Positions 3,893 to 62,537 of a stretch of 64,000 nucleotides of DNA are shown one piece after another. The notes below the pieces were generated by a model. The model saw only the letters and a program-made list of their open reading frames with translations. It was not told the origin of the DNA and searched no databases. Both the position numbers and the translations under genes were made by a program. Every line of letters starts with the position of its first letter. Within the stretch, counting starts at the first letter, position 1. Source of the stretch: Eledone cirrhosa (Eukaryota); NCBI GenBank assembly GCA_964016885.1, contig OZ024741.1:156240001-156304000 (forward strand), in the 5' to 3' direction.

Positions 3893-6380
3893 ATGTAAAA
3901 GAAATCAAAGAACGCCTACATACTCATACAATTTTTATTTGCTGACAATGTTTCATCTCATCCATACCATTGGGCAGGAATCATGAGAGCTTTATAAACA
4001 AAAATACAGTGCTGAGTATAAGCTCTACCAAGCTTAGTCACATGAACATTAGAAATAAAATAGAGGGTAACAAGAGGAAGATCGGAAATGGCAAGTATGG
4101 AGAGAGTGCATAGTGGGGTTGTTATTCAACACTACAGCTATATGCTAGGGTACAGGCAGATATTTTCACAAGATGCGGTAGCACGTGAACGCACACAAAA
4201 GCAAAAAGTATAAACAATAGTTAAAACATATAATAGTAAAGTAAAAGGAAAATAATAATATAAAGAGATTGTGGTCCCTGATCGTTAGCATAACGTCCTA
4301 AGTATTGTCACCCCATTGATGGCGAATGATACTGCAGCCCATTGCTATTACGAGGAAGGTAATTCAAATACTGGCCCCATCTGGCTTAGTCCCACAGACC
4401 CATATGGGCATATCTAGTTCAATTGTTAGATTCTCCCTACTACGGGACATGCGTACACTGCCCGACCCCCATAATTGGTAATAGATACGGCTCGTACCGG
4501 GTTTGGGGACACCGTGCTTGCACTTTAGGATTATTAGAGTTCCCTTTACCGTAGAACCTATATTTTATACTATCTGTTTGAACCCGACCCGTTTGAACAC
4601 TCCCCCATAATAGAATTAGTAAAGCTATCCTTGGGCTTATCGACATATCATAAGGTAACCGCGATTCAATAGTCTTTAGTATGACACACTTGACTATTCT
4701 GGAGGTCCAATAATAATTAATAGTAATATAGTTTTTATTTGTACGAATCTTGTTGAATTAGTATGATTATTCTGTTGGTGATTACATTGTTGGTGGTCGT
4801 TCGAATTAAATAGCGTTATAGTTGACACGTTAGAGTAGTCCCCCTTTCTCTACCACTGTAACGTCATTACTTGGTGACTGAAGGAAGTAACACCCTGTAT
4901 GTACCTTCTACGTTATGAATTGATGTGTATATACCCATAGCGGTGACGAACGAAGTAGCGTGTGTTTGTTTTTTATGGAGCCAAATTCCTAAATTTCCGC
5001 GGGGTAAGTAAGCTGTCTTATATAATTTGTGTATGCCTGTTTAGGTATGACCCCACCTAATAGACATATTGGGTACCTGGTGGATTTACTGATTTGAGCA
5101 CTTTGTGTTATTTTCTGTTTTGTATAGATTGTTAATCCACGTGCTGTACGAGTTTGGAGAACTACTGCTGTACTTAACCTGGAATTATTTTGACGTATTC
5201 GGGGCTGGATTAGATATGACGAATTTGGTTGTACAGAATCTGGAGCTCCAACTTGGACACATTGTACTTCACGGTCTGGGATTTTAAACATGTGGAGATT
5301 TTTTGATGTGTAAATTCAGCCTGTAATACATGTTACTATATGTGATGATATGTTTTTCGTAAGCGTATGAATCCGACTGGATTGCATTTTACGGACTATC
5401 TACATATGTTATAAACTCTGGACCAAATTACTATCTACGGACAATCCACTATCTTTATAACTCATAGACAATCGGGACATATGAAACCGATTGGACTAAC
5501 CTCTACGGTAGATACACATATGTAGTGACTCCTCGCCAGATGTGTGTTTTTTACAGGAACTAAACCATTTTTGTTATGTATTTTTCCTTCAGCCTGATCA
5601 TGCAATAACCCCGCTTTGCTTGTGTTTGACTTGTATTGATGTGGTACCTGTCTATATACAGATTTAGCACCCATGGTCCACGTAATTCCGTAACCTACTA
5701 GTATACCTTGATTATGTATACTATGGGGAGGAATAAAATCCCATTTGGGCTTTCTGAAGGTACCTTGGGAGCTTCTTAGTATTTATATAACTCTAAGTTA
5801 TGGAGAACTAAATCACCTGTTATATATAGTGACCAACGCATACTTTCCTCTGGTTTTTTGTGTGCTTTAAATTAAATTTTTTCTTTTTCTTTTTAAATTT
5901 TCTTTATCTCTTTATATTATTACTTTCCTTTTACTTTATTATTATATGTTTTAACTATTGTTTATACTTTTTGCTTTTGTGTGGCCTCACGTGCTTCCGC
6001 ATCTTGTGAAAATATCTGTGCCTGTACCTTAGCATATAGCTGTAGTGCTGAATAACAACCCCACTATGCACTCTCTCCATACTCGCCATTTCCGATCTCC
6101 CTCTTGTTACTCTCTATTGTATTTCTAATGTTCATGTGACTAAGCTTGGTAGAGCTTATACTCAGCACTGTATTTTTGTTTATAAAGCTCTGATGATTCT
6201 TGCCCCATGGTACGGATGAAACATTGTCAGCAAGTAAAAATTGTATAAGTATGTAGGCGTTCTTTGATTTCTTTTACATATAACGGCTCTGTTCTCGTAC
6301 ATTGAGCTTATACAATACTGTCACGAATACGACACGGTTCAGGTGCGTTTATGCACATACGCTCCGTGGTCTACGTAAAT
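3893..6380 (+). mobile_element. Penelope-like element with about 375-bp inverted arms, HHR and 3' tail
   Basis: 3893-4268 is the reverse complement of about 5907-6281; unpaired tail 6282-6380; (TA)n on both sides; HHR in the arm. Confidence 0.75.
6187..6231 (+). ncRNA. Type I hammerhead ribozyme motif
   Basis: gct-CTGATGA-stem II-GAAA-catt-GTC-agc; the inverted copy at about 3941-3990 has CTCATGA. Confidence 0.75.
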
Positions 6381-6642
6381 ATATATATATATATACATAC
6401 AAGTGGAAGCTTAGTAAAATCGAAGCTTTGGCTGTTGGCAAGCAAAGTCGACCTACAATATGAATGAGTTAGCAAAGCACTCAATAGGGGTAGGTCCTTA
6501 GAGTAATAACATACGTTTAAATAGCTTGACAAATTGAACATTGTGATAGGCAAAACCTAACATACAATACCAAATTAACGAAAAAACTAACAGGTTAAAA
6601 AGGTATATATATATATATAAAGAAGTATAAAATAGAAATGGC

Positions 6643-6822: not shown

Positions 6823-7341
6823 TGACAATGAAGGTGTAGTAAGGAACCAGATGAACCATAACGCACCAGAGTACTCGATACTTAGGGTAGTAGAGTGGGT
6901 AATAGAAAAAGAGTCAGGACCTCGACGGTTGAGTTCTGGCCGTTTCGACAACTAGATCCGAACTAATCCACCAGTATTAGAACTCTACTACTCTACGTAT
7001 TGAGCCCTCTGGTGTACCATGGTCCACTTGGTATCTTACCACACCTTGGTGTGAGGCGAGCACTGTGAAATCTCGCATGCACTAATTCCAGCTCTTATTA
7101 ATAACTGCATCTGTATTGTATACACACCCATACGCCCACACACACTCATACAGACATGCACGTATACATATTCATATACATATTTATATATATAACAACG
7201 ATGGTGTGATAAGATATCAGGTGGACCATGGTGCAGCAGAGGGCTCAATACTTAGGGTAGTAGAGTTCTAATACTGGTGGCTTAGTTCGGATCTAGCTGT
7301 CGAAACGGCCGGAGCTCAGCCATCGGGGCCCTGACTCTTTT

Positions 7342-7345
<4 letters not shown>
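6823..7345. mobile_element. (TA)n-embedded nested inverted-repeat element (family also at 32296-32340 and 62536-62735)
   Basis: About 6832-6897 is inverted to about 6982-7045; 7200-7345 is inverted to about 6903-7045. Confidence 0.7.
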
Positions 7346-7393
<48 letters not shown>

Positions 7394-9044: not shown

Positions 9045-9080
9045 TCTTCTGATGAAGGACTTGCGTCCGAAACGTTAAGA
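9045..9080 (+). ncRNA. Minimal type I hammerhead motif
   Basis: tctt-CTGATGA-a-ggac-ttgc-gtcc-GAAA-cg-TTA-aga with palindromic AACGTT stem III. Confidence 0.75.
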
Positions 9081-9274: not shown

Positions 9275-9965
9275 AAGGGATAACAAAATATCGTTATAGA
9301 CAATCCAGTTAGAGGTTGTGAATACTTCTTATTATGGATAGTTTTAGCGTACGTAGATGACGAGTTTATGATTTCACTTGTATTCCTATGTAAGTTTATC
9401 TTGGAGTAATAAAATTAAATAAGTGGAGAATAACATGCTCACCAGTACAAAAAAGGGGATTTATTTACAGTATAACAATTGTTTCACTGATAAAGATGTC
9501 TAAAAATTGCTGAACACTAGAAGCAGTGCCACTCAATTTTAAATACGATGTTAGCTCGATCAGATGTTCGCAAAAGACAAAATATATATAACCGGCAAAT
9601 TTACAAATTCAAATTACATCATCAATAATGATATTAATAATAAAGATAGAGAGAGAAAAGAAGGAGGAAGAAAAGTAGATAAATACTTTTTCCTTTCCTT
9701 TCTTTCTTTACTGTATCTATCTCCCTTTCTTCCTCCTTCTTTTCTCTCTCTATCTTTATTATTAATATTATTATTGATGATGTAATTTGAATTTGTTAAT
9801 TTGCCGGTTATATATATTTTATATTTTGTATAACAGTTTCCGAAGATCTGATCGATTAACATCGTATTTAAAATTGAGTGGCACTGCTTCTAGTGTTCAG
9901 CAATTTTTAGACATCTTTATCAGTGAAACAATTGTTAGACTGTAAATAAATTCCCTTTTTTGTAC
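9275..9965. repeat. Fold-back palindrome (arms 9445-9685 / 9713-9965) with left tail
   Basis: Arms are reverse complements; (TA)n flanks; HHR-like motif in the arm. Confidence 0.9.
9833..9943 (+). ncRNA. Hammerhead variant (CCGAAGA core, long stem II insert)
   Basis: acagtt-t-CCGAAGA-tctgat..about 70 nt..atcagt-GAAA-caattg-TTA-gactgt. Confidence 0.55.
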
Positions 9966-13484: not shown

Positions 13485-13670
13485 TCCCACGCGCTGGCCT
13501 CTCCACAGTTTCCCCGGAGGATAGTAAGGGAGATGCGCTGGAAGAGCCATTCCATCTCGCGAGGCTCACACCTGCGGCTGACCATCTCAGCGCCTATGGT
13601 GGCGAGTAGGGAGGTAGCCCTAGGGCCAAGGACACCAGAAGCCACCACTGCCAGTATAGTCTTGTTTACC
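13485..13670 (-). pseudogene. C-terminal restriction-like endonuclease fragment of a CRE-like non-LTR element
   Basis: AVVASGVLGP..EMEWLFQRISLTILRGN resembles the ETLG..LFQRLS..IQRGN motif; homologous to 61420-61560. Confidence 0.7.
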
Positions 13671-14161
13671 CAAAAAGCTGGTGGCATATGATTTAGAATG
13701 AATGAATTCAAGCATCAGTCGAATATTCCTCCCGCTCATTGGTCAGATTCTCACCATTCTAATACTAAATCTATTGAATTGTTAGGTCAGTTGTCCTGGA
13801 ATCAGATCAATTGGCTAGGATTGTTTTTAGCAGCCAACTATAATAACTGTATACACCTAGAAAATAGGGCCGAGTTTTGCCCTAATTGACCTACCTGTAT
13901 TAGTGGCAGTAATGTTAATATGCTCCTACCTCTCCTCGTGTGGGGAGTGGTAGTATTGGAGTTGGTAGTGATTATTTCACGTAGTAAGCGGATATGGCTT
14001 CATTTGGGAATGTGTATGCTTATCAATATTAAGAATCCTGATTGTAAGAGATGTTAAAATTATAATTGTAGGAGTTAAAAATTATAATTCATATTTTAAA
14101 CATATAATACACACCCGCACACACATATCTACATACACGCATACGCACACACAGACAGACA

Positions 14162-14255
<94 letters not shown>

Positions 14256-14264
14256 CATACACTT

Positions 14265-14800
14265 CCAACCTACCAAATCAAAAACAAGAGGTTAAATCCT
14301 ATGTAGGTATGGCGGAAGGTCGGTTTAAGGAACGCTTCTTAAACTATCAGTCGACCTTTGGATACTCGGAAAAACGATCGTCCACGAAACTCGCGAGCTA
14401 CGTATGGTACCTCAAAGACTCAGGCGTAGACTACTCCATCCAATGGAAATCTATCAGTAAGTCAAAGCCATACGCAAGGTGTAATCCATATTGTGGACTG
14501 TGCATTGAAGAAAGGATCAATATCCTGAGGCAATAGGGATTGCCTAAATTCAAGAAATGAGCTATTTTCACGTTGTCCACACGTCTGGAAACACCTCTTA
14601 ATTACAAATATCCAGAGTGAATAACATCAACATTCTAATATTCTGATCAACTGGAATAATTTATTCCGGACATTCGCAGTTATCTCCCTTACATCTTTCG
14701 ACCGTGGGATTATATTTACTCAGACCGAGATGATGATCCGCATAAGGTGAAACATTTGTTCTCGGTATAGTGAACTAACTCTTGTGGAACTACTTCTATA
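14265..14800 (+). mobile_element. 3' fragment of Neptune-type Penelope-like element (GIY-YIG C-terminus + 3' UTR)
   Basis: YVGMAEGRFKERF..STKLASYVWYLK..WKSI..CGLCIEER, then LNSRNELFSRCPH; HHR in the UTR. Confidence 0.85.
14724..14766 (+). ncRNA. Hammerhead motif in PLE 3' UTR (C3 mutated to A)
   Basis: accgag-ATGATGA-t-cc-gcataa-gg-t-GAAA-cattt-GTT-ctcggt; 6-bp stem I. Confidence 0.65.
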
Positions 14801-15649
14801 CACACACATACATATATATCTATATACATATCTCTATACACAGATATATATACACACACACAAACATATTCGCTCATACGCGCACATCCGCATGTATATA
14901 CACCCATGTAGACACATATGTACCCTTTAGAAGGGTGAAAATAGAAATAACAGGTACGTATTATTTACTTATCTCAGTTTGTATTGCCTTTTATGTGCGA
15001 AAGGTATTAGGTTGGAGGTAGTTTGTCATTAGGAAAACCGGATTATAGACCGTCTGAGGAGTTGCTATCCATATAGATTGAGGAAAGTTCCTGTCCTTAG
15101 GTGTCGACATACACCAAAGAAATCTGCCCTGCGGTTGCTTAAATTTATTCCGCAACTGAGTATCTCGAGGGTCTCACTCAGACAGAGGCTGCAAATGCCA
15201 GACCCGCCTCCGTCTGAGGGTACCTCCCTAAACTTTGACTAACCTAAAGAGTACGGGGTCTTGCCTAGCTTGAGCTTCCAGATCAGTTCAGACAAAGGCC
15301 GTACTTTTCCTTTTGTCGACACTATTAAAGGAGTGGCACAGATTATACCACCTGTCCTTGAAGCTCGTTGATGTTGCTCCTATGTATATATGCTCCGTGT
15401 TGCGGTTTGTAACCCTGCATCGGTAAACTAAGTTCTTCACCAGGCATTCATTTCTAAGGGGGCATAAGACGGGGTTTCTGCAGTTGCATCAAGAAGTCAT
15501 CCTCTGTACGTTTACTACCCCAATGGGTAGATTGGAGTGGTGCATCCCTATAACTTGCTCAGGATTTCTGGGCGGGTTTGTGTGACTCAAGTCAGTCCTG
15601 GGTCTACTGTTTACCCTGTGATGGCTCTGCTGGATGTCTCTAGGATCAA

Positions 15650-17070
15650 CTGTTGCCTGTCTAAATGCTCTAAGTCTATTTCTATTGATACTAGCTATTG
15701 ATACTTCCCTAGCACATAGCTAGTCTCCCGCAAAACGTATCTTTCTTAGACGAACAATATCTGACACAGAAGAAATATCCAGATAGAGTTCTTCGTTTGT
15801 GACTCTCTATTGCCAAGATATGTTGAAAGCGTGTCTCAGGAGTTTCGTGTAACATCCATTTAGTCTTTTTTCGAGGGTTTTATTAAGCGTCCATGCTTCC
15901 GACCCGTAGAGTAAAGCACTTTCAACTGTGGCTTTGAAGAACATAAGCTTTAGTCGTCCCAAGAGAGATGATGGCCATATTTTGTTAAGTTTGTTTTTGG
16001 CTGACCATGTTAAGGCTTTTCTGATGTTGATTTGTTTCTCTGTTGACGAGATCCATGCTCCGAGATATTTGAAATCAGAAACTTCTTTAATAGTTTCACC
16101 ATTTGAAGCACACAGCTGACCATGTCTATTAAATATCATAAATTAGGTATTGGTCTCATTTATTTTCAACCTTACGTTTATCGTTGCCTCTACCAGCCGA
16201 ATGAAAAGAGTTTGAGTATCTGCTATATTATTTGAAGTTAGACAGATGTCACCTGCGTAATTCGTGTCAGTGTTAATATTCTCGGGATTAAGTTGTTTCC
16301 GAGCAGTGGTTTGGTTTATAGTAAAACCTTGAACAGTACATCTCATAACGTAATATATCACTATAGTAAAAAATGTATTGAGACAGAGTATCACCCTGAA
16401 GTACTCCATTCTTAATTTCAAAGAAATCTATCTCGCCATCATCAGACATGACATTCGCCAGGTACATAAAACCAATGGCTAGAACAATTCTGTGAATTTT
16501 CAGCATCTTCTCTCGATTTATTGAATCGAAGGCCTTTTTAGAATCTATAAATGTTAAAACTGCTTAATCTATAAATGTTAAAACTGCTGGAAGGTTCTTT
16601 GACTTGACGCCCTCAACAATTCGTCTAAGCCTCAAATTTTGAGAGATTTTAGAACAACCTTCTTTGACTCGTTTTGATTAATTCTCAAGAGAAGTTCGAC
16701 ATCAAGTAGTATCCTAAGGAGCAGCTCGTCCCTGAGTGAACTAACCTTCCACATTCTCCCGGAATTTCCATTGATTCCAGTAGCCTTACCATTCGGCAGC
16801 TCCCACAAACATTCTTTGAGATCGTTTACACTAAAGTCGCCGGTATGTATGGGTAGATGTGTACTGCTGCCAACTTCGGGGTTTAACAATTCATTGTCGT
16901 CATTACCATGGGTTGCTGGAGAAAGAGGTCCCTCGAAATGCCTTCTCTAAAGACGAAGACGATCTTCAGTCGAATCATCCCCTACTATGACACGACATTT
17001 GTTTTTCCTGCCAGTCACTTCATTGCACATTTTCCAGACTTCGCCACATTTCTGGTCTTCCTGTGCAGCA
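15650..17070 (-). pseudogene. Degenerate RTE-clade LINE reverse transcriptase
   Basis: GVLQGDTLS, YAGDICL (YADD motif), FKYLGAWI and ESALLYGSEAWTL across frameshifted ORFs. Confidence 0.9.
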
Positions 17071-17186
17071 TTTTTTAAACTTAGAATATATGTATGTATA
17101 TATATATATATATATCTACAAAGTAAACTGTCTCTAATACAGTTTATTCATATACATACATTTTGTTCCCCATATGCATATAAATA

Positions 17187-17247
<61 letters not shown>

Positions 17248-18118
17248 CTTAATTTACATCTTTATAAAGTAAGTTTCTTTTAACACGTAGGCATCTCCAT
17301 GAAAGGATTAGATATATCAATAAATTAATAACCAATAATCCACTCAGAGTAGTATTAAACATATTAAATTTGGGGCAATATATAAGTCAGAATTGGTTAC
17401 TTTTAGCCAAGTTGACTTATATCCCACCCAATGTAGGATTTGAGCTTAAATTTAATATTTAATATATTTATGTATATATAAATATTTATGTATGTATGCA
17501 TGTATGTATGTATGTATGCGTGTGTATGTATGTATGTGTGTGTGTATGTATCTATGTATGCATGTATGAATGTATGTATGCATGTATGTGTCAGGTCACC
17601 ATTGGGGATTTCGATTGTTAAATTTGTTTGTTTTAATAATATTTTTACACGACTGTATGTAAAATCCCCGGCATGTGTCTTTGTATTGTCCCCTTTTCTT
17701 GTACGCCCTTCCGGCAAATAAGGAAATATATCTATCTATCTTTCTATCTATTTATGTATCTATCTATCTATCTATCTATCTATCTGTCTGTCTATCTATA
17801 GATAGTCGATCGTCGATCGGCAAGATCCCAGTGGGGTGGAACTCGTCAAATCCTACCGAGGAAACAATTGCTAATACTATCTGTTATTTGCACCTCCAGG
17901 AAGAAGGAAAAACGTGAAATTAAGTGTCTTGCTCAAGGACATAACGCATCGTCTCGTCTGTGATTTGAAATCCCAACCTCACGATTACGAAACCAATTTT
18001 CTAACCACACAGCCATCACTATCTCTCCCTCTCTCTCCTTCTCTCTCTCTCTATATATATATATATTTAAGCTCTATCCACCCCTATCTCTCTCCTCTCT
18101 CTCTCTCGCTCTCGCTCT

Positions 18119-18230
<112 letters not shown>

Positions 18231-18404
18231 GAGTTTCGCGGTAGTCTTTGGAAACATTGTGGCTATAACAATTTCAATTGTCCAAATGATGCGCAATAAA
18301 GTATTAAACGTAGTAATTTATTCAGAAATTTTACAATCTAAAATACTGTCATCAGATTTTATATTCACTAATGAGTCTGATATATATATAGTTATATATA
18401 TCTA

Positions 18405-18495
<91 letters not shown>

Positions 18496-18629
18496 AAAGT
18501 CTTATTTAAAATTGTTGGGTTACAACGAGTAAATATTTTATAACTGATATAAAGCACTCAACAAGTTTTGGAGTAGATATACGATATTAAACAAATGGAA
18601 ACTATATTTATAAAATCATATTTATTTCA

Positions 18630-18684
18630 TTATACATATTTCAGGGATACCATATTAAAAATATGGCATGCCTTCTTCAGATAA
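18630..18684 (-). ncRNA. Type I hammerhead motif (family of 25561/25741)
   Basis: Reverse complement reads ttat-CTGAAGA-aggcatgccatatt-ttt-aatatggtatccct-GAAA-tat-GTA-taa. Confidence 0.7.
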
Positions 18685-18897
18685 AATACAATATATAAAT
18701 ATTAGGTATAGGATTACCCAAGATGTAGTAATGGTTAATTACTACACTGGATATGGTTGACGTACGGTGAGAGGTTACTCTACGAGTTATGGAAGAATTG
18801 TTGAAGAAACTTAGTTCCTGATCCTTCTGTATTCCGGAGTGTATATAAAGAATGAATAATAACAGGTAGACATCATAAAAAGGTAATTTATTCCGTG

Positions 18898-19009
18898 TGC
18901 TTACAAATGTTTCCACGGTGGTACTACAGCCTAGTTATGCTACGTGCAAATTTACAAGTATTTGCAGAACTCAAATATCCAATGCTGTGACCATTGTATC
19001 CTCAGCGCA
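18898..19009 (-). ncRNA. Hammerhead with about 85-nt stem II domain
   Basis: Reverse complement reads tgcg-CTGAGGA-tacaatggt...accaccgtg-GAAA-cattt-GTA-agca. Confidence 0.55.
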
Positions 19010-19539
19010 GAATGGTAAAATGTACAATGTAAATACCCTTAAGTGGGGTTGTTGGGGAAGATAGAGTAGAAAAGGAAGAGAGAAAAGTAGGGGAGAGGGA
19101 GAGAGAGAGAATGATATGCAGGGGTTGGAGAAGTAGGAGAGAGTGGTTTGTAGATATCTTAATCAAAATGTTATGGTAGGGGTTTTATTATACTGGTTAC
19201 TTTTGGAGAGATGCGTTGATGGGTAAGGTCGGAATTATTTATTGCCCCAGAGGGCAGGTTCATAGATGTGGAGAAGGGAGGTAGGCCAAAGGCGAGAGAG
19301 AGAGAGTGTAATGGATGTAGAGAGAGAGGTAGAGAGGGGACAGACGAAGTTTATGTGGTGAGTGAACTTTGGGTTTGTAGTAGTAATCTGTGAATTGCAC
19401 TGAGTTACCCTTTATAGTGATAAGCAGTGTATTGTCTTGTAGTGTGGGGGAAGAGAAGGTGGTTAGCTAGAAAGCGATGTTATAGTTACGGGTTCGAATG
19501 TTAAGTTATTTTATAGTGGGAGAATTTAGCTTTTAGTTT

Positions 19540-20594
19540 GTGGTTGCAGTATAATGATCGTTCAATTCTATCGTTAAGTAGTTTGTTTTTGGATTTTAAT
19601 ATGTAAAAGAGTTCAAAGTTACATAACCTGCAGTACTTCAATCCACTCCGATATGCACTTGCGCTGGAAAGTATATCCCATTTTAGGTGAACTGTTGGTT
19701 GCGTTCACGGAGTTGCCAGGTCTTGTTGGCGAGCGTGGTCACAAAACGGTGATTAGGATGTTTGATTGAGAATCGATGACGGTACCAGCGAGATTTAAAC
19801 GAGGTGGTGGTAGATCCGATATAATACCATTTCTGGTCGTTCGATTCAACCGTGCATTGGTAAACAATGTTGGACTTCAGGCATTCATTCTTCAATGGAC
19901 ATCTTTCGGGTAGATGGCAGTTACATTCTTTGTTGTGGGTAGCGGGTATACCATGGATAGGTTGTGATAGCGGTACAGGTGGATTGTGTAATACCCATCT
20001 CCCATTTAGTGGTTGGGAGGCAGATATTACGTTCTGCCCATCTGTTACTAAAATGTTTTGTTTTGTAGAGTTGTTTAATTGCCTTAAGTTAAGTTTTTTT
20101 ATGTATGCTTCAAGGTTTGGTGCCGTGGAGTATGATAGTCTAATAGTTTTAGAGTTCAGAATTTTGCTGTATTTATGGGAACTAGGGAAATGTTTGTTGA
20201 TTAACTTAAAGAATGAAAGAGATAGTTTTGTACTAATCGAGGCATTAAATATAGGATTGTACCAGATATACTTTCTCCAACGTGATTTATTTTTTCTGTT
20301 ATTAGTATGTCTGGTAGTACTGTGTGTGCGCGCTTGTATTTTAATCCTCCGGTTACGTATTCCTTGATTTCGTGTAGAGCTATGTGAGTTATGGAAATTC
20401 CTATCAATGTATTCTATTGTATCCCGGTGGTCGGCCTTTCTTAATGCATTATTGTAGTATTCAGCGTGTTCACTAAAAATATCAGAGTTAGACGATAGGC
20501 GAGAGATTCTAAGAGAAATACTCCGGGGAACTGATTTGATCATGGAGAGTGGGTGGTTTGAGTTAAAGTTAATATACGTAAGGTTCCCATTCAT
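19540..20594 (-). pseudogene. PLE RT thumb + Cys linker + GIY-YIG endonuclease (truncated, stop at 19683)
   Basis: YINFNSNHP..ISRLSSN, WYNPIFN, CNC..CPL..CLKSNIVYQCTV..YIGSTTTSFKSRWYRH; continues past the stop as WDIL..CRLCNFE..LLNDRIE. Confidence 0.9.
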
Positions 20595-20650
20595 CTTGTA
20601 AGCACACGGAATAAATTACCTTTTATGATGTCTACCTGTTATTATTCATT

Positions 20651-20688
<38 letters not shown>

Positions 20689-20691
20689 CAC

Positions 20692-20787
<96 letters not shown>

Positions 20788-21020
20788 CACATTTATATAT
20801 ATATACCCACCTTTCCCTCTCCGTTGTACACTCTTGCGCAATGTGCTATGTGGAAGGTCTGCAGTCACCCGCACACGAACACACACGAACACCACACCTC
20901 TGATATTGCCTAGGGAAAAACCGCCTCTTAACAAGAATGTCGTTGCATCTCGTATATGATATATATATATACCGCATATGGATGCATCCAAGCAACCTTA
21001 CTACATATATATATATATAT

Positions 21021-21207
21021 TTATCCCGGTTTCAATTGGGGGTAACCACAGTAAGTAAGGTACTCAATACATAGCAGAGTATAAATAGTTATCATACAAA
21101 TGGCTTCTACAGGACTAGAACTGTTTCATTAGGGAGAAATCATCATCGGCGCTTTCCTCATAATTTCTCCCAAATGAAACAGTTCTAGTCATGTAGAAGT
21201 CATTTCT
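21021..21207. repeat. Short fold-back with tail, HHR family of 24213
   Basis: Tail GGTAACCACAGTAAGTAAGGTACTCAATACATAGCAGAGTATAAA is shared with 24236-24280; two inverted degenerate HHR halves. Confidence 0.85.
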
Positions 21208-21704
21208 ATATATATATATAAATATAATTTCAGCGAGATCGTATTTGTGGTCAAAAACAAAGCGAAACGCAATTTTCGAGATATGCGGCAAGCGCTCAAT
21301 GGACTAAAAGAAGACCAGAGCAATTAACATACGTTATAGAGGCAAAACAAACTGAAAACGGCGGTCATGAAGCTATCAGCCACCGAAGCCCAAAAAACGA
21401 AGCAAGCTAAGCAGGTTACACAAAAGAATTTTGTGTGTGTGTGTATGTATATATATATATATATAGAGAGAGATTATACATTGGGAAAAAGCAAATGCTG
21501 ATGATGCTTGAAGCCAGTGGTCTCCCAAGCCACATTTTGATTTAAGTGTGTGTGTATGTGTGTGTATGTGCGCGTGTGTGTGTGTGTGTGTGTTTGTCTC
21601 TGTGTGTGTCTGTAAGTGTGTGTGTATGAGTGTGTGTGTGTGTTTAAGGGTGTGTGGGGGGTTAGATTGAGCGACAGAGAGAGAGAGTGTGTGTGTGAGT
21701 GAGG

Positions 21705-24214: not shown

Positions 24215-24297
24215 GTTATTCCGGGTTGAATCGGAGGTAACCACAGTAAGTAAGGTACTCAATACATAGCAGAGTATAAAAGTTTTAATATAGATGA

Positions 24298-25430: not shown

Positions 25431-25843
25431 AAAGTTATATTTAAATTGTTGGGTTACACCTAGTAAATATTTATAACTGATATAAAAGCACTCAACAAGT
25501 ATTTGGAGTATATTTACGATATTAAATAAATGGAAACTATATTTATAAAACCATATCTATTTCATTATATATATTTCAGGGATATCATATTAACAATATG
25601 TTATGCCTTCTTCAGATAAAATACAATATAGACAGTTTTATAGATAAATAGATTTGACTGCCAAATCAACTTTTTCAAATACAAGTCGATGTTGAACGGT
25701 ATGTCAAATCTATTTATCTATAAAACTGTCTATATTGTATTTTGTCTGAAGAAAGCATAACATATTGTTAATATGATATCCCTGAAATATATATAATGAA
25801 ATAGATATGGTTTTATAAATATAGTTTCCATTTATTTAATATC

Positions 25844-25846
<3 letters not shown>
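25430..25846. repeat. Fold-back with left tail; HHRs at 25561-25620 (-) and 25741-25800 (+)
   Basis: Arms about 25516-25658 / 25703-25846; CTGAAGA..GAAA cores; same family as 18495-18700. Confidence 0.88.
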
Positions 25847-25904
<58 letters not shown>

Positions 25905-25907
<3 letters not shown>

Positions 25908-26746
25908 ATAAACGGAAAAAATGAAACGAAATTTCATTTCCCACTCTTAGTACGGCTGTTACTTAAATATAAGTATGTACACGTACATACATATATGTAT
26001 ACAGACGTACAGTAGTATGTATATATATATACATACATGCACACATATATATATGTACGTATAGATTCACCGAACATTTATTATAATGCTCGGTGTGTTT
26101 GTCAACAAACATCCCGTATTAAGCCGTAGTGTCTAGCAACCATCGTTGCTCGTTTGTTCAACACTGAGAAAGGAACGCTGTACTAGTTTCAAGCTTATTA
26201 GCTATCGTCAACAATGTATACCTTCCTGCCAGATTGTTGAACATATATACTTACCTTATGCATATTAACGGCTGAGTAGCCCTATTTGCATATCGAGTGG
26301 GTTAATCGGCCGGGTGCACTGTTACTTATATTTAAGTAACAGCCGTACTAAGAGTGGGAAATGAAATTTCGTTTCATTTTTTCAGTTTATCGTTTTCGGT
26401 GCACCCGGCCGATTAACCCACTCGATATGCAAATTGGGCTACTCAGCCGTTAATATGCATAAGGTAAGCATATACGTTCAACAATCTGGCAGGAAGGTAT
26501 ACGTTGCTGACGATAGCTAATAAGCTTGAAGCTAGTACAGCGTTCCTTTGTCAGTGTTGAACAAACGAGCAACGATGGTTGCTAGACACTACGGCTTAAT
26601 ACGGGATGTTTGTTTACAAACACACCGAGCATTATAATAAATGTTCGGTGATTCCATATGTACATGTATATATGTGTGTATGTATGTATATATATATATA
26701 CATACTACTGAACGTCTGTATACATATATGTATGTACGTGTACATA

Positions 26747-26750
<4 letters not shown>
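25905..26750. mobile_element. Two inverted, circularly permuted copies of an about 422-bp HHR monomer
   Basis: TACTTATA at 26323 and 26745 bound the + copy; the - copy starts in a different register; HHRs at about 26177-26215 (-) and 26503-26541 (+). Confidence 0.8.
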
Positions 26751-32337: not shown

Positions 32338-34027
<1,690 letters not shown>

Positions 34028-38565: not shown

Positions 38566-38610
<45 letters not shown>

Positions 38611-40818
38611 CAACGTAAACTCCGTTCCACTTATTCTAGTAGGCTTTTATATTTATATGTGAGCTGATAGAGTACTGTCTAAGGATTTACAGAAACCCAT
38701 GAAGCTAGATTTAACACCTTTCTAGTGGGTCCGGGTATGATTTTACATTCATTTAAATTATTGACGTATTGTTTTATTGATATTTTTTATCTGTTTGGCC
38801 CGAATCTTCCTTTATCGATTTTAAATCGTATGGTTGATTGTAGACTTGTTCTATATGTGACGGTATTTTAACGATAGTTATAGCTCTGATTCATCTGAAT
38901 TATTGAGCCCTCTGCCGCTCATATCGAATTTCGTTTTTCGTGAACTCGTGCGCCGATTTTTCGATACTCGATCTTTCTAATATATTTAGCTCTGGACATA
39001 GCTATCCACCAGTTAATTTTATTGCTCATTTTTTGTCGATTCTATTGAGTGATGAATAGCTTTTGTTTTATTTTAACATGTCTATTGAGCACTCTAATTC
39101 GATATGTGTATTTCCACATTCACTCGAATTGTTTTCGCGGATATAGGGGTCATCTCCCTTGTCTAATGCCATGTGCGTTTTTCACCGCTAGTTGACTCCT
39201 TTGCCGCCAGGATAAAACTCGTTGACAACGTAAACTCCGTTCCACTTATTCTAGTAGGCTTTTATATTTATATGTGAGCTGATAGAGTACTGTCTAAGGA
39301 TTTACAGAAACCCATGAAGCTAGATTTAACACCTTTCTAGTGGGTCCGGGTATGATTTTACATTCATTTAAATTATTGACGTATTGTTTTATTGATATTT
39401 TTTATCTGTTTGGCCCGAATCTTCCTTTATCGATTTTAAATCGTATGGTTGATTGTAGACTTGTTCTATATGTGACGGTATTTTAACGATAGTTATAGCT
39501 CTGATTCATCTGAATTATTGAGCCCTCTGCCGCTCATATCGAATTTCGTTTTTCGTGAACTCGTGCGCCGATTTTTCGATACTCGATCTTTCTAATATAT
39601 TTAGCTCTGGACATAGCTATCCACCAGTTAATTTTATTGCTCATTTTTTGTCGATTCTATTGAGTGATGAATAGCTTTTGTTTTATTTTAACATGTCTAT
39701 TGAGCACTCTAATTCGATATGTGTATTTCCACATTCACTCGAATTGTTTTCGCGGATATAGGGGTCATCTCCCTTGTCTAATGCCATGTGCGTTTTTCAC
39801 CGCTAGTTGACTCCTTTGCCGCCAGGATAAAACTCGTTGACAACGTAAACTCCGTTCCACTTATTCTAGTAGGCTTTTATATTTATATGTGAGCTGATAG
39901 AGTACTGTCTAAGGATTTACAGAAACCCATGAAGCTAGATTTAACACCTTTCTAGTGGGTCCGGGTATGATTTTACATTCATTTAAATTATTGACGTATT
40001 GTTTTATTGATATTTTTTATCTGTTTGGCCCGAATCTTCCTTTATCGATTTTAAATCGTATGGTTGATTGTAGACTTGTTCTATATGTGACGGTATTTTA
40101 ACGATAGTTATAGCTCTGATTCATCTGAATTATTGAGCCCTCTGCCGCTCATATCGAATTTCGTTTTTCGTGAACTCGTGCGCCGATTTTTCGATACTCG
40201 ATCTTTCTAATATATTTAGCTCTGGACATAGCTATCCACCAGTTAATTTTATTGCTCATTTTTTGTCGATTCTATTGAGTGATGAATAGCTTTTGTTTTA
40301 TTTTAACATGTCTATTGAGCACTCTAATTCGATATGTGTATTTCCACATTCACTCGAATTGTTTTCGCGGATATAGGGGTCATCTCCCTTGTCTAATGCC
40401 ATGTGCGTTTTTCACCGCTAGTTGACTCCTTTGCCGCCAGGATAAAACTCGTTGACAACGTAAACTCCGTTCCACTTATTCTAGTAGGCTTTTATATTTA
40501 TATGTGAGCTGATAGAGTACTGTCTAAGGATTTACAGAAACCCATGAAGCTAGATTTAACACCTTTCTAGTGGGTCCGGGTATGATTTTACATTCATTTA
40601 AATTATTGACGTATTGTTTTATTGATATTTTTTATCTGTTTGGCCCGAATCTTCCTTTATCGATTTTAAATCGTATGGTTGATTGTAGACTTGTTCTATA
40701 TGTGACGGTATTTTAACGATAGTTATAGCTCTGATTCATCTGAATTATTGAGCCCTCTGCCGCTCATATCGAATTTCGTTTTTCGTGAACTCGTGCGCCG
40801 ATTTTTCGATACTCGATC

Positions 40819-40826
<8 letters not shown>
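38611..40826. repeat. 615-bp tandem repeat, about 3.6 apparently identical copies
   Basis: CAACGTAAACTCCG at 38611, 39226, 39841 and 40456; (TA)n at both ends. Confidence 0.97.
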
Positions 40827-40858: not shown

Positions 40859-43800
40859 TAGCATTAAAGACCGGTGTTGCTCGGGGTCAGTAAGTTACCA
40901 AAGTTAAGTTGCACCACCCATTTTATGGCAGCATTTTTTTGTCTGCCAGGCACTGGTTGAATGAATTGCAAACCTGCACTGGCGAACAGGAGCTGCGCCA
41001 GCAGTGACAATTGTAGTTTCGCCTATTGATATTATCTCTGTGCAAAGAAGTGCTCAAATTTATTGTTTCACAGTACTTGCGCAACACGCGCGTAGACGAT
41101 GCCAGCCGAACAACAGAGCTGCGATGGAGTTGTTCTGCATGACATGTTTTAACGGGAGAGGGGCGGATTGAGGGAACCGCAAACTGGGGCCTGAAAACAT
41201 TGTCGAATTATGACAACCAAAAAAGAGGAAGAGGGATCATTGTATGGTTGGTGCATCATGTACGTCGGACGTAGAAGATGAGCCTGCGGCTGTGCCGACG
41301 GAGGGAGGGAAATAGAGCTGGGTGGAGGCCAGGTGTTGGTGAAGTGTGAAGTAATTGCAGGGAACCGCGTAAAAATCTAAATCCCGTCATTAAAGCATTG
41401 TTGACCCTTTGAGAGTCGTACGGAGGTGAAATACTAACCTGTCCACCGTCCTCCGAGGCCCACCAAACGGGGGTTGGTGAGGAGCAACAGCTGATATTTG
41501 AGTAGGGTCGGAGTTGCAATGAAGTTTTGTAACGCCGCGAGAATCAGCCTTTGTACGGCAGATGGTGGGTAGTGTCCAGTGCACTGCAGTGAAGGTTAAC
41601 CTACTTAGAAAGTACTCACGAAAAGGCAAAAAATAAAAAAATAAAAAATGTTATAAAATTAGGAATCAAGGTAATCCTATAAAACCTCCTTGTACATAAA
41701 GTTTTTTTTGTTTTTCCTTGCGGAACGAACGCGAAATCATCACTCTTGCTGCCGACACGCGAGCAGCCATTAAAGCTGACCATGAGAGAAACACGGCTCC
41801 CCCAAATGTATTCCCGCGACAGACAGTGTTTGTCCCTGCGCTTTGTTAATTGACATTGCGAAGCATGGCTTGACCGGGAACTGGGACCTCCGAAATGTGA
41901 GAGGTAGGTCTGTTCCTGATGGGAAAAGATGCATCCTCGGTATGAGCACAAACTTGCCCCGACCACACCCTGTGATTATCGTGGCCTCAATCAGATTGGG
42001 AGCTAAGGACTTAACGACCAAACGTGTGCCATTGCATTGTTTCGGCGGAACCAAATTTCGAATGAGCATTATAGGGGCACCAACTTTAAGTTTCAAAATG
42101 TGTGGGGGTAATCCGAGGGGCTCAAAGGAATTTAGTACCTCTATTGGATAGTTGATGACGCCCTCGGGGTCAGGAGTTCTATCGATAGACTTATATACGT
42201 AGCCATCCCCAGGAATGAGTTTTAGCATTTGATCATTAATATGGTTAACAGTTTTATTCCTCGGGGCCAGAATAGCCCTTTGGCCAAGCCAATCCATATT
42301 CTGATAATTTGCTTGGAGATCTGGGAACACTGCATCCCTGAGATCAGAAGGCGTACTAACAACGGTACAAAGTGATTCGATGGCAATATTACCCTTTTCA
42401 TCCCCGGGCGTTTTGCCTTCGCCAAGTGCAAGGATGGTGTGAGAAAATGCTGCTGATGTGATATCACCTCGCATATGAGCACGCATGTTAGTGTGAAGTT
42501 TCAGAGTCTTCACCAGGGGCCACAATGCAGATGACTTAAGACACGCACGTACTGCATCAGCTATAGTCCCCTTGGGAATAACGGGAAGCGTTTGCCTGAA
42601 TTCCTCTGAAAGAAGAAGTGTTATGCCTCCCATTGGAGCCGTAGAGTCTTTGATATCTCTCAGAGTTCTATCGAACGCCTCAAGAGCACCTCTGTGGGCC
42701 ATCGTGCATTCGTCCTTCTGTTCGCCTAATCTTAGCTAATATTAATTTGGTGACAAAAGTCTTCCCAGTCCCCCCAGGAGCGTCCAGGAAAAAATCCCCC
42801 CAGCTTTTCCCCGGACAGAATTAACAACGGAGTTGTAAGCGAATTTCTGTTCTGAAAGGAGCTTTGGCTCATTCTCTGCTATGTACTGGGAAAGCTCGTC
42901 AACATTATAAAATGTCTCACGCAGCAAATCCGAAGACAGAGTGTTTGCACATTCCCGGTTTGTTGAAGGTAGGCCATACACAGCTAACGCACTACCGCCC
43001 ATATCGAGAACAGTATCTTCGATTTCAAGCAGCGCCCTGTTGTAAATGAGGTAAAATGGGTTTAGCAACTGAGCGTGACGCAGGAAATCTTCAGACATGT
43101 AATCTTTGTAGCTAAACCATAAAGAGGCCGGATCACCCAAGTCACACCATAGGAGTAGAATAGCGAAAAGCGATCTAGTCTTTTAGGAGATTTCAATAAA
43201 ACGCCCTCTGCCATAGTGGCGCCCCATTGTGAATCATCCTCCAAAAGGTCACGTCTAAAGCAGGCTTCCCGGAAAGTATCACATAATTCACCGTCAACAG
43301 TTCTTATGTCTCGAAAGCTTTGTGGACCAAAAACCTCATGGAGAAGAAGGCGCAGGTGAAAACACTCATGCTGGTTGGGAGGTGTAGTGTACACTCTTCC
43401 TAGACAACTGTCAAACTTGACACCAGGATGTCCTTCAACATCCTGACCTGACTTCCTACGCACCCAAGTGTTGTTGGACCACACGTAGTAGGACGGGACC
43501 TGAGGATATGAAAGTGTTTTTGCAAATGTGTCAAGTTGGCAAAGCGTAAAACAAACAGTCAAATTTGTTTCTTTTGGATTGGCCGCCAAATGAGCAGCAG
43601 TCTGTTCAGTAAAGTAAGCCCGCTGGCCGTTTTCCAAATGAACCGCTAGTTGTATGATGGCGGGGTGCCTTTGGTGAACTGGAAACCCAAATATCCGCCA
43701 AAAAGCTTCACCCCTGCTGATATATCGATCTGCCAAGTACTCCGAGACCTCGTCCCTGCTATTGTCGTTTTGAAGGCCGAACATGGCAGCGTCGGAACCC

Positions 43801-46800
43801 TTGTTAACATATTTACATATGTACTTTATCGACTTCACTGAATGACAGAACTCCACATTTATATGAGCGTTGAAGGTTTTCATCAGAAATGGACAGTACG
43901 GGACCACCCACCTATTATCAATTTGATGACCCCGTAACGTCATAGTGAATCCACCGTTCTCAGGCCGCCTTCGTCTGTACAGTGGGTATCCGTCGCCGCC
44001 GGTCTGGGTCTCCTCAACAAACCTCTTTGGGTATCGTTTAGTGCACACATGGTCCTTGTGGCATGAGGAGAACTCTTGAAAACCGGGTCCGCACGGACCG
44101 TGCACCATGTGTGCCTTCACAATGTCGTACAGCTGCCGGTCAACAACGGGGTCCGGGATTTCCGCTGCGATGACGTCATCTATAACTGTAGGGTCTATTT
44201 TGGTGACCAACCAAACCAAAATGTGCGCGTGTGGCAACCCTCTCTTCTGCCACTCAACAGTATACATGTGGCACCTTAGAGGCCCGAAAACCTTCCCTTT
44301 TTTTATTAGATCAATTAGGTTAGCCAGCTTCTGCCTGAAACCCCTGGCAATAATATCATGCTGATGGCAGTACCTCTGCCCTGGGATAAGTTCCCGCGTA
44401 ACCTCAACCCACTTGGGCTTACACGTAAACGTGATGAATAACTCGGGGCGCCCATAATGCCGAACGAACGTCATAGCGTCCTGTGTTCGCTCGTGCATGT
44501 ACCGCGCCCCCTCCCCGTATAGGTTGAGGGGAGAATGCACATTTTGCCGATGTTCGCGGGGTCAGTGTCATTCCTGATGCCGTCACGCAAATGGATGTAG
44601 GAGTCTGAGCGCAGCTGCTTCTGATTCAATTTTATGAAGCACAGTCTCTCCGACTCCATCTTTGCAGCCATGTCAATTGCAAACTGGTGAAACAGTTCTC
44701 GTGACCTGTGCAGGGTGCTGAAATCGTTAGGCCTCGTCATGAAGCGGTATGAGTATAAAGCCATGCATGAAACAGCTTTAGATGTTGCAGCAGTGGGCTC
44801 GTTTGGTTTGCGCTGAGGAATGCCGAAATGGTACCCGTCTATTCCGTATGCAAAGAGAACGGGATACTGCAGGGCGTCGTATGAACGATGCGTCTCATTA
44901 ATACGTCGAAGACCACTGTCACGACTTTGAAGAACTATGTCTTGCTTATTGTGCTGTTCATCATGGATAACTACGGCCACTTCATTGCACGAAGGAGCGT
45001 TATAACAGCGTGCGTGCTCCCCAGAAAGTCTTTTGTCAGCATCGATGACAATGGTGAAGTTTGGTGAAGGATGTGTTTCGAATGCGTATTTGAAACTGCG
45101 AATATAACTGTTGTGCTCATGAAGCATGTTTTGAAGATCGAGCAGCACGTCCCTTTCAAAAGTGTCAGCGTCAGTGTTTGCATGTGTTGGAATAACGCCG
45201 AACCACGCATCAACTTGCCTACTGTAGTTAGAAATGAAGTAAATTTGAAGGAACGAAGGCTTGCAAGATGGTACACCTGCCCCTGGACCTTGAAAGTAGG
45301 CATCCAACCACTTTCTCTGACAACGTTAGCCCCGAAAGAAGTTATTTGAAACGCACAATTGTACTTCCTGATGAGTTGAAGGAATTTGGATGACCTTGAG
45401 GTAGAACCAGTAAGTAGTTCCTTCAAAGGCTCTGGTGGTTCCCCAAGAGGGGGCAAGCTAACCTTACCGTTTAAGCAGCACATTGCAGGTGGTTCCGAAC
45501 CCACTTTTTAGCATTGCAGAATTTGCAATTGAAGCGCATTTCCCGTATATTTATGTCGGCACGCATCGAGTAGTTAACGTTGGGCTCATACTTGAAAGCC
45601 CGTAGGTGCCAGTATGGGCTGTCGGAGCTCGTCACACCGTGGGCAGCTTCTTGTCGTCGACTGGTCCGCTCCAACGTAGAATGTTGCTCCTGTGGGTCGT
45701 GGGAAGCTCTCGCAGCAGTAGCAGAAGTCACCCTTGCAATCCTAGTGGAGCGCCCGTCTGCATCTTCAGAAGCCATGGAATCAGTCATAGCCGCAGCGTT
45801 CCTAGCAAGGCGATTCATCCGCCGTTCCAAACCTTCCAAAGCCCTGGAAGCAGCAGTAGCCGCACTGTTTCTATTCAGGCGAGTCGACCTTTGTTCCGGG
45901 CTCTCTGAAGCCCTGGAAGTAGCAGTAGAAGCGTTTTTGGGGGAATGACGTATCCCCCGCTCCGAATCGCACATCGCAGCACGTCTCGAGGCGTCGTATG
46001 AAGCCATCTTGACTAGGCGTGCGGTGCGGTGTTGAAAACTTTCAGCAGCTCTGCATTCCGCTGAACGGAAGGCGCTCTGTGAAAGTCTTAAAGCAGTTTC
46101 CTCGGGGGGTTCGTTTGCTGTAATCGCCCTCTGCGCCGCCGCTGACGCAGTATGGCGACCGAGGCGACTTCTCTTTTTATGTGGCATTGTATGTGAAAAA
46201 GAAAGGGTGAAAGTTACTTCTACAGCAAAATTGCCTTTGAAAGTGTAAGGGTGAAAACTGTCTGCGTTCCGCAGGTGAAAAAATGGGAGAACGAACGGTT
46301 AATAAATAACTCACAGTTTGTTGAAAGCGCGCTTCTGTCAGCAATTTGAAGTTGTTTGGCCAAAAATCTCTATTTGTTTGTTTTTTTCACTCAATAAACG
46401 TGTAAATATGTTATAAACAAAATGTAATTGTGTGTGAGCATGTATTTTTTTTTTTTTGAATAGAGAGAGGAAATTATTTCCGTAATTGTGAGTGATTTTG
46501 AAATAAATAAATAGTCGTTGATCTAAGTTAGACCATTTACAACATTCTTACAGAGGCAAATAAATAACTCACAGTTTGTTTAAAGCGCGCTTCTGTCAGC
46601 AATGTGAAGTTGTTTGGCCAAAAATCCCTATGTGGTTTTTTTTTCACTCAATAAACGTGTAAATATGTTATACACAAAATGTAATTGTGTGAAATTATTA
46701 AGGAGTGGGTTTATAAACGTATATAAGAGATGTAAGCGTCATGTATTTAACGTTTGTCTCTGTCTCTGACTCTCTGGCTACCTCCTTTATTTTCTCTCTC

Positions 46801-47562: not shown

Positions 47563-48057
47563 TAAATGTAAGTATGTATGTATACGTACATACATGTATG
47601 TATACAGACGTACAGTTGTATGTATATATATACATACATGCACACATATATATATGCACGTATCGGTTTACCGAACATTTATTATAATGCTCGGTTTGTT
47701 TGTTTGTAAACAAACAAACAGCCCGAACGCCGTACAGTGTTTAGGCAACCACGTCACCTTTTTGTTCAACACTGACACAGGAACGATGTACTAGTTTCAA
47801 GCTTATTAGCTATCGTCAGTATCGTATACCTTTCTGCCAGATGGTTGAACGTCTGAAAGTATATACTTTCCTTATGCATATTAACGGCTGAGCAAGCTAA
47901 TTTGCATATCGAGTGAGTTAGTCGGCCGGGCGCACCGAAACGATAAATGGAAAAGAATGAAACGAAATTTCATTTCTCACTCTTAGTACGGCTGGTACTT
48001 AAATGTAAGTATGTATGTATGTTTGTAAACAAACAAACAGCCCGAATTACGCCGTAC
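47563..48057 (-). mobile_element. About 437-bp HHR monomer with terminal redundancy (family of 25905)
   Basis: TAAATGTAAGTATGTATG at 47563 and 48000. Confidence 0.8.
47784..47824 (-). ncRNA. Type I hammerhead, intact core
   Basis: Reverse complement reads cgata-CTGACGA-t-agct-aata-agct-t-GAAA-cta-GTA-catcg. Confidence 0.8.

Positions 48058-51540: not shown

Positions 51541-51547
<7 letters not shown>

Positions 51548-52750: not shown

Positions 52751-52754
<4 letters not shown>

Positions 52755-53696: not shown

Positions 53697-53699
<3 letters not shown>
52751..53699 (-). mobile_element. 527-bp HHR monomer, about 1.8 tandem copies (HHRs 52869-52949, 53396-53476)
   Basis: ATCAAGATAAGCAGAACAAG at 52751 and 53278; CTGATGA..GAAACTGTACAGTTA on -. 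Confidence 0.88.

Positions 53700-54761: not shown

Positions 54762-54762
<1 letters not shown>

Positions 54763-62472: not shown

Positions 62473-62533
<61 letters not shown>

Positions 62534-62537
<4 letters not shown>

Follow-up and report, generated by a model that had tools for sequence, protein, structure and literature searches.

Penelope-like elements (PLEs) of the Hydra clade are defined, according to section 11 of PMC8557442, by a CxCX5C linker, loss of the CCHH motif, C-terminal CxxC and CxH motifs, an RWK motif, replacement of DKG by DKT, insertion into (TA)n and canonical hammerhead ribozymes (HHRs). In the supplement of that paper, 26 of 27 Hydra families are listed as preferring (TA)n, and the legend of its Fig. 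2 describes 5' truncation, an inverted copy and a one-sided tail for PLEs. For the Poseidon element PAc of the green anole, the HHR was reported to be dispensable for insertion in vitro (PMC11167929). Non-coding repeats with type I HHRs, termed non-LTR retrozymes, have been proposed to be derived from PLEs and mobilised by them (PMC7229834; bioRxiv 10.64898/2026.07.22.740005). In the available text of these sources, the truncation, the inverted copy, the tail, the bias to (TA)n and the HHR at the 3' end are all described already, and retrozymes have been proposed there as non-autonomous PLE derivatives. The formation of the inverted repeats and tails of PLEs, and the pick-up of retrozyme RNA, are named as open questions (PMC8557442; bioRxiv 10.64898/2026.07.22.740005).

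The present locus lies in a 64,000-nt stretch of DNA from Eledone cirrhosa (hereafter, the window), which is microsatellite-rich and of eukaryotic type, with 25-50% GC and 155 TA runs. Hammerhead core residues are designated below by the conventional numbering, as in C3. The element and its immediate neighbours are as follows.

19501..20597, minus strand: 5'-truncated Hydra-clade PLE ORF, comprising RT thumb, linker and GIY-YIG endonuclease (exhaustive protein search, profile and motifs)
19899..19925, minus strand: CxCX5C linker (CNCHLPERC), diagnostic of the Hydra clade (motif test)
19815..19868, minus strand: GIY-YIG motif, IVY...YIG, with no CxxC between the halves (motif test)
19006..19500, minus strand: 3' untranslated region of the PLE, with pyrimidine-rich tracts (sequence)
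18898..19009, minus strand: predicted type I HHR of the PLE (descriptor search and shuffles)
18842..18847, minus strand: internal TATATA at which inverted arm and main copy diverge, some 60 nt past the predicted cut
18697..18841, minus strand: 144-nt PLE tail, in the main copy only, opening with ACTCC
20592..20659, plus strand: inverted tail-less arm; the exact match runs from 20596, and 20592-20597 form an ambiguous junction
20654..20784, strand not applicable: (TA)n target tract beside the tail-less arm
18494..18695, minus strand: separate non-coding HHR repeat ('family B') adjoining the PLE tail, 91% identical to 25431-25630
14265..14800, plus strand: second PLE remnant, with the endonuclease end, C-terminal CxxC and CxH, and a 3' HHR with C3A
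15059..15692, minus strand: third PLE remnant, with a Hydra-type CxCX5C linker, stops and a frameshift

The ORF remnant occupies the minus strand between 20597 and about 19501, and its endonuclease part is frameshifted near 19690-19700. Word-index protein searches returned no match, at near or longer lengths, but the family was recovered by exhaustive search, with 4596 protein relatives at E<=0.001 (best, 8e-38) and identities of 30-44% among the 150 relatives listed. A profile of 711 positions was derived from 20 full-length relatives, and the remnant aligns to its positions 409-708. The break falls at the RT thumb and the RT catalytic core (positions 1-408) is gone, in agreement with the first-pass annotation of this DNA, in which the GIY-YIG ORF was described as 5'-truncated. 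The same annotation offered the element as a candidate autonomous partner, a role that this copy does not fill: with its RT core missing and its endonuclease frameshifted, it is dead and non-autonomous. The relatives carry YRDDG plus the same C-terminal domain as the remnant.

The window protein possesses the CNCHLPERC linker, lacks a CxxC inside the GIY-YIG domain and bears a C-terminal CxxC..E..N..CxH motif, which sits in the shifted frame (19698-19504). Among 116 endonuclease-bearing relatives, the strict CxCX5C linker was observed in 79 and the C-terminal motif in 80; RW[KR] and DKT, which belong to a region missing from the window copy, were present in 15 and 17 of the 20 full-length relatives, respectively. 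Pfam gave nothing significant for the window ORF and a single weak GIY-YIG match (E 0.012) for nine long relatives, and comparison of the profile with solved structures gave one weak match, to a retron RT (E 0.012). The AlphaFold model of the remnant (mean pLDDT 73, pTM 0.32) had no Foldseek match at E<=0.001; the GIY-YIG enzymes I-TevI, T4 EndoII and Hpy188I ranked among the top structures, at non-significant E values of 1.3-4.3. In the nearest Atlas clusters GIY-YIG is found in 17-27% of members, and no relative was found among prokaryotic genome contigs. On the basis of its motifs, the element is an EN+ PLE with a predicted GIY-YIG endonuclease C-terminal to the RT, and, since the Hydra motifs are found and those of Neptune are not, it is assigned, by motifs rather than by a tree, to the Hydra clade and not to Neptune.

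Like Hydra-1_Obim, Hydra-2_Amil and Penelope-13_HM, as documented in the available part of PMC8557442, the element combines the CxCX5C linker, the lack of CCHH and the C-terminal CxxC and CxH with a (TA)n target, a type I HHR near its 3' end and an inverted, 5'-truncated copy; its full-length relatives share with them RWK, DKT and an ORF of about 720 aa. In contrast to these elements, its stem II insert measures 85 nt (in the HHR table of PMC8557442 none of the 26 Hydra rows exceeds 26 nt, by our own count), its 3' untranslated region is about 800 nt long, and the window copy is truncated and frameshifted. The 144-nt tail compares with the 30-40 bp quoted for PLEs in the same literature. The layout also resembles that of Poseidon PAc, in which, according to the accessible text of PMC11167929, two internal start sites bound a tail, the HHR lies upstream of the start sites and an AT-rich target is cut on both strands. 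The start sites of PAc, however, are not homologous to the target and lie inside the ORF start, whereas the inner site of the window PLE is a TATA that matches (TA)n. Unlike that of PAc, its tail encodes no ORF N-terminus; the search for one, as in Poseidon, gave a best E value of 14, and this possibility was rejected.

The inverted arm (20596-20659) copies 18906-18842, with 64 of 65 columns identical, so that the earlier description of a 63-bp inverted copy of the element's own 3' end was essentially right, at 64 bp. Its far end is likewise as described: the arm diverges at the internal TATATA (18847-18842), there entering a TA run of 32 nt, and the main copy goes on into the 144-nt tail. The start that had been given for the element, 18690, falls inside the separate repeat at 18494-18695. 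No target-site duplication is readable in the (TA)n. The right flank (20654-20799) contains a 47-nt direct repeat, made up of (TA)n and a short unique stretch, the copies 99 nt apart, which possibly reflects a duplication from insertion or slippage.

At its near end the sequence of the arm is TTGTA|AGC; if one inserted base is allowed, the arm reaches CATCTTGTA. Relative to the predicted scissile bond, the arm start is 5 nt upstream by exact match, 3 nt if TT is given to the ORF, and 8 template nt upstream with one inserted base; whichever alignment is chosen, the arm carries the GUA of the 5' cleavage product. For this GUA to originate from the ORF, a Tyr would be needed at -8 before the conserved Y..SxHP motif, and it occurs in none of 106 relatives. 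The relatives have Lys at -7 in 103 of 106 cases and Met at -6 in none, from which it follows that 2-6 bases at the junction are common to ORF and arm or of ambiguous origin, as in a microhomology join. The microhomology is between the cDNA end CAT(C)TT and AAATG at 18905-18909, inside stem III of the HHR. Only one copy of this PLE family is present within the window.

The reading that we favour, at a probability of about 0.72, is that of a dead, 5'-truncated Hydra-clade PLE inserted in (TA)n, with an inverted 5' copy and a one-sided tail of the kind known from PLEs. The clade motifs, truncation, arm, asymmetry, microhomology and HHR motif are observed at the locus; all enzymatic steps, including nicking, the order of priming, the uncut template and pausing, are inferred. 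The GIY-YIG endonuclease of the PLE would nick the (TA)n, and one target end would act as primer for reverse transcription, starting from the tail end of an RNA left uncut by its hammerhead; the RT would then copy through the ribozyme and stop in the thumb-coding region. Some 60 nt downstream of the ribozyme, at the internal UAUA, the other target end would be joined. The arm of 64-68 nt could result either from a second priming at this UAUA or from the first cDNA folding back on itself, and by either route the junction would be fixed by 2-6 nt of microhomology, located by chance in stem III; RT pausing at the ribozyme core would perhaps help the join. As for the two routes, near-equal arm lengths in most fold-backs (12 of the 17 inverted structures of the window have spacers between -19 and 44 nt) favour cDNA fold-back, whereas the longer tail-less arm of one structure (D25972), which a simple fold-back does not explain, favours two priming events.

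The ribozyme motif of the PLE, and the other type I HHRs of the window with long stems II, are positioned as follows.

19005-18999, minus strand: CUGAGGA of the PLE HHR
18998-18914, minus strand: stem II, 85 nt
18913-18909, minus strand: GAAAC
18904-18902, minus strand: GUA; predicted cut between 18902 and 18901
9840-9936, plus strand: HHR with a stem II of 78 nt
25358-25243, minus strand: HHR with a stem II of 97 nt
12950-12878, minus strand: HHR with a stem II of 52 nt
52943-52874, minus strand: HHR with a stem II of 49 nt
51869-51802, minus strand: HHR with a stem II of 40 nt

In the PLE HHR the core is intact, stem I has 3 bp after a G.A mismatch, stem II is closed and stem III has 2-3 bp. 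The motif (19005-18902) was recovered by two descriptors, both tuned with it in view, which gave a match in 0 and 1 of 5000 dinucleotide shuffles of the 805-nt 3' region; the looser descriptor found 14 motifs in the window versus a mean of 0.17 in 30 shuffles. The 85-nt insert closes end to end in register, with basal pair probabilities of 0.69-0.98 and an equal score in 13 of 1000 shuffles, at an ordinary folding energy (z -0.75). The forced hammerhead fold lies 8.0 kcal/mol above the best fold, the second worst of nine window HHRs tested (range, 1.0-8.6). Rfam produced no match at gathering thresholds across the window, and no HHR family was among its 41 weak matches in 13500-21500. A degenerate HHR core that lies closer, near 18929, was dropped by eye, being without stem II. 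The predicted cut precedes the inner TA by 60 nt, the distance being 17-80 nt in eight of nine other structures and about 210 nt in the ninth. By its core and stems the motif is a type I hammerhead, beyond what chance would provide, with a predicted cleavage site at the GUA, although the short stem I after a mismatch and the cost of the fold speak against activity in this copy; the earlier assignment of a long-stem-II HHR to 18898-19009 is confirmed as to the motif. A U.U at the base of stem II appears in 14 of the 26 published Hydra rows (own count; PMC8557442) and in five of nine window HHRs tested, the PLE HHR having U.G. Two window HHRs (9840 and 33724) show a CCGAAGA core variant. A minimal hammerhead of a type unlike the Hydra-like ones, with a G-C-rich stem II and a palindromic loop III, is located at 9049-9076 on the plus strand, with no coding remnant match nearby. 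Hammerheads with stems II as long as 78, 85 and 97 nt would escape short-spacer descriptors, such as the 7-17 nt allowed in one published search.

The distance between arm start and predicted cut was scored in the 10 of 17 inverted structures that have a readable HHR 3' half. The PLE alone has an arm start within 10 nt of the cut, and none of seven single or tandem copies does; the tail-less or un-tailed arms of the other nine structures start 36-350 nt upstream of the cut and the seven copies 52-496 nt upstream. A single match within 10 nt among 10 has a chance of about 25% under a uniform 0-350 nt model. The clustering of arm starts at cut sites that had been anticipated is therefore replaced by scatter. 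No scored arm starts downstream of its cut, a figure to be read with the difficulty of detecting very short arms in mind. As all 10 arms reach the cut, that of the PLE barely, the ribozyme fold may play a role as a stop. In its stronger form, in which the uncut ribozyme fold is an RT pause site and the position of the arm start is not due to chance, this idea must be rated unlikely. The arm does end in stem III, the point of first contact with the core for an RT travelling 3' to 5', and in two further structures the start is 36 and 53 nt upstream of the cut, close to or at the HHR's 5' side. Most arms, however, read 72-350 nt through their own HHR, the single near match is of the frequency that chance allows, and microhomology alone explains the join.

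A somewhat less probable proposal concerns the abutting family B copy, whose HHR (18680-18631) and complete tail hairpin (18574-18556) have the same orientation as the PLE. The two might have been inserted as one chimeric cDNA, in line with their common orientation, their direct contact through ATATATA and the flanking of the pair by a single (TA)n tract at either end. Yet the tail-less arm ends at the TATA of the PLE rather than at that of family B, insertions stack side by side in (TA)n elsewhere (25431-26748), and ATATA would be a natural microhomology for an independent 5' join, all of which speak against the proposal. If true, the chimera would be direct evidence that the RT of this PLE family copies non-coding RNA. 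Of the other neighbouring remnants, the second PLE remnant (14265-14800) carries a 3' HHR, as had been noted earlier, at 14730-14760, with a 6-bp stem I. It is probably inactive, since its core C3 is changed to A and C3G abolished cleavage in the anole element, according to the accessible text of PMC11167929. No HHR was found for the third remnant (15059-15692) in the descriptor search of the window.

The model put forward in the first-pass annotation, which explains the arm as a run-off copy of the 3' product released when the HHR cleaved the RNA, is very improbable. It is right that the arm starts near the predicted cut (3-8 nt) and that the HHR motif exceeds chance; the start, however, lies upstream of the cut, includes the GUA and forms a microhomology join. 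Because the GUA remains on the 5' product, cut RNA cannot template it, and with Tyr at -8 absent from all 106 relatives the ORF is no likely substitute source. A re-ligated circular RNA, as proposed in PMC4209133, would restore the GUA, but the hammerhead fold carries its cost of 8.0 kcal/mol, no second copy lies nearby to provide the dimer that HHRs with short stems III need, and proximity to the cut is confined to one of 10 inverted structures and none of the seven other copies. The published elements point the same way: the inverted 5' copy of Penelope-13_HM (966 nt) includes the whole HHR (PMC8557442 supplement), and, in the accessible text of PMC11167929, HHR-dead RNA of the anole PLE inserts normally in vitro, uncut RNA is the main insertion substrate of the one PLE tested in vitro, and no RNA-seq reads of the anole PLE begin or end at the cut. 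The link to the cleavage site is not supported, and the ribozyme of the PLE did not make the inverted end.

The label 'Neptune' given to the element at first can be dismissed, for although a C-terminal GIY-YIG, a cysteine linker, (TA)n targeting and a bias to microsatellites are also Neptune traits, the window protein has a CxCX5C linker, no CCHH and C-terminal CxxC/CxH, all Hydra features, and lacks the CX2-5CxxC linker of Neptune, which is found in 1 of 116 endonuclease-bearing relatives, with CxxC inside GIY-YIG (CCHH) in 0 of 116 and DKG in 0 of 20 full-length relatives.

The asymmetry of the preferred reading, that of a PLE inserted in (TA)n with an inverted copy and a one-sided tail, recurs in the non-coding fold-backs of the window. 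In 12 of 17 inverted structures, one arm enters a TA run of at least 14 nt at a TA that is kept internally by the other arm before the tail, and the expected clustering of insertions in (TA)n is thereby borne out; as a background, 5.7% of all bases in the window are no farther than 12 nt from the edge of a TA run. The rule is weaker or absent in the structures F3603, F10160, F48055, F62754 and F63008. The shared (TA)n asymmetry and the tail motif described below implicate PLE-type machinery, which most likely produced the non-coding fold-backs as well. At the DNA level, an nhmmer comparison of the PLE 3' region with other window elements had a best non-self E value of 0.32, and local alignments exceeded all 200 shuffles for three of 19 elements (P3894, F9412 and F38142). 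The alignment with P3894, the sole one inspected, was gappy and pyrimidine-driven with the HHRs out of register, and was not counted as homology. The PLE 3' region and the 3' end of the 15059 remnant are not homologous (score 70, shuffle mean 68). The tie between fold-backs and PLE machinery claimed earlier thus holds for the insertion architecture, but not through the cleavage site or any convincing DNA homology to this family.

The tails of about nine unrelated non-coding repeats open with a covarying hairpin, RCTC-stem-TT-GAGY, right after the internal TA. The hairpins are located as follows.

Plus strand: 6286-6307, 33806-33839, 62661-62684 and 38883-38908
Minus strand: 6873-6896, 24257-24275, 21062-21080 and 25490-25509
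Minus strand: 18556-18574, 21294-21321, 52138-52159 and 6476-6507

Tails were scored for 14 of the 17 structures, leaving aside three that have no clear tail side. RCTCY within 9 nt of the TA was found in 10 of the 14 tails (eight of 12 families; background, 102 of 4697), and RCTC-stem-TT/TC-GAGY at 7-8 of 8 points in seven of 14 (background, 31 of 698), although small p-values from these counts overstate the enrichment, the motif having been spotted in the same tails as were scored. The hairpin-forming tails represent five of 12 families, two of them possibly related. In a nine-row alignment, whose rows were chosen for pairing, four of seven base pairs vary at both positions, and pairing is kept in all 63 cells. 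Less circular is the finding that the model also matched two sites on which it was not trained, both immediately past a TA: 52135-52162, with an E value of 0.049, and 6476-6507, with one of 0.069. The TA before the former is the very one at which the tandem sister copy runs out into (TA)n, at 51545. Further untrained matches, at 7240-7269 and 6979-7008, are antisense copies inside a training family. Among six published Hydra consensus sequences in the supplement of PMC8557442, the full hairpin is seen by eye in two (Hydra-2_Amil and Hydra-2_Ajap), where it follows an internal TATA, and in part in Hydra-1_Crog; the three others end at a TA without a tail.

The PLE's own tail presents ACTCC, the 5' half of the hairpin, at the right spacing, with a hairpin score of 5 of 8, which equals the background mode, and the tail-hairpin model had no match in it at E<=5. 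With only half of the hairpin in this tail, and no convincing DNA homology to the fold-backs, this PLE family is not implicated as their partner.

Several further repeats show variations on this architecture. In the HHR family at 25908-26748 and 47573-48015 the centre of the fold-back holds a copy of its own tail and the tail-less arm is longer; the family looks as if it were copied through tandem or circular RNA. The 5' part of the fold-back family at 6825-7346 and 62533-62733 is the reverse complement of its own tail, and its RNA could close into a rod. Two tandem families fit the form of the non-LTR retrozymes. One is a 615-nt repeat (38610-40824; 3.6 units, 100% identical) with (TA)n on both flanks, a tail hairpin in each full unit and, by eye, a degenerate hammerhead, which is either a recent retrozyme-like array or an assembly artefact. 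The other is a retrozyme-like 527-nt tandem HHR repeat between (TA)n tracts (52751-53698 and 54762-55354), which has no clear tail hairpin and weak model matches only (E about 3). Retrozymes are defined as head-to-tail tandems in PMC7229834, in the available text of which the word 'inverted' does not occur, whereas most of the window elements are asymmetric inverted pairs.

Other sequences of the window include a Helitron remnant (41770-46298) with Pfam matches to Helitron_like_N and PIF1 helicase in broken frames, a 65-nt tandem repeat of about 14 units (1417-2325), and broken frames at 15560-17070 and 56092-56817 that by eye resemble other RT-type (LINE-like) remnants. A 1.6-kb spacer between inverted HHR arms (4270-5905) contains short minus-strand stretches that also resemble decayed RT by eye; six-frame comparison of this spacer gave neither a Pfam nor a Hydra-profile match.

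The observations on arms, tails and ribozymes can be combined in one joint reading, which we hold tentatively, at slightly less than even odds. Proteins of Hydra-clade PLEs would recognise an internal UA(UA) and, directly 3' of it where the tail begins, a hairpin RCUC-[3-6 bp stem]-UU-GAGY, and many unrelated non-coding HHR RNAs of this genome that bear this signal would be mobilised by them in trans. One target end would join the tail end and the other the internal UA, giving insertion into (TA)n as asymmetric inverted pairs, and stem II inserts of up to about 100 nt would be tolerated. In the literature covered, which does not extend to older Penelope-tail papers, Repbase notes and preprint supplements, neither the tail hairpin, nor the asymmetry rule, nor stem II inserts of such length were found. 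The words 'hairpin' and 'stem-loop' have no occurrences in the available text of the PMC8557442 supplement, and no cis recognition signal is given in the portions consulted of the retrozyme papers (PMC7229834; bioRxiv 10.64898/2026.07.22.740005).

Taken alone, the element is unremarkable, a dead member of a clade already described, with an unusually long-armed HHR, and the shared tail signal is a lead worth following. The tail hairpin beside the internal TA provides a specific sequence to mutate in the existing in vitro assay for one PLE (PMC11167929). If the joint reading is true, the hairpin and its adjacent TA would constitute a cis signal for trans-mobilisation by PLEs, and would supply a concrete rule behind the unexplained structure of inverted pLTR plus tail.
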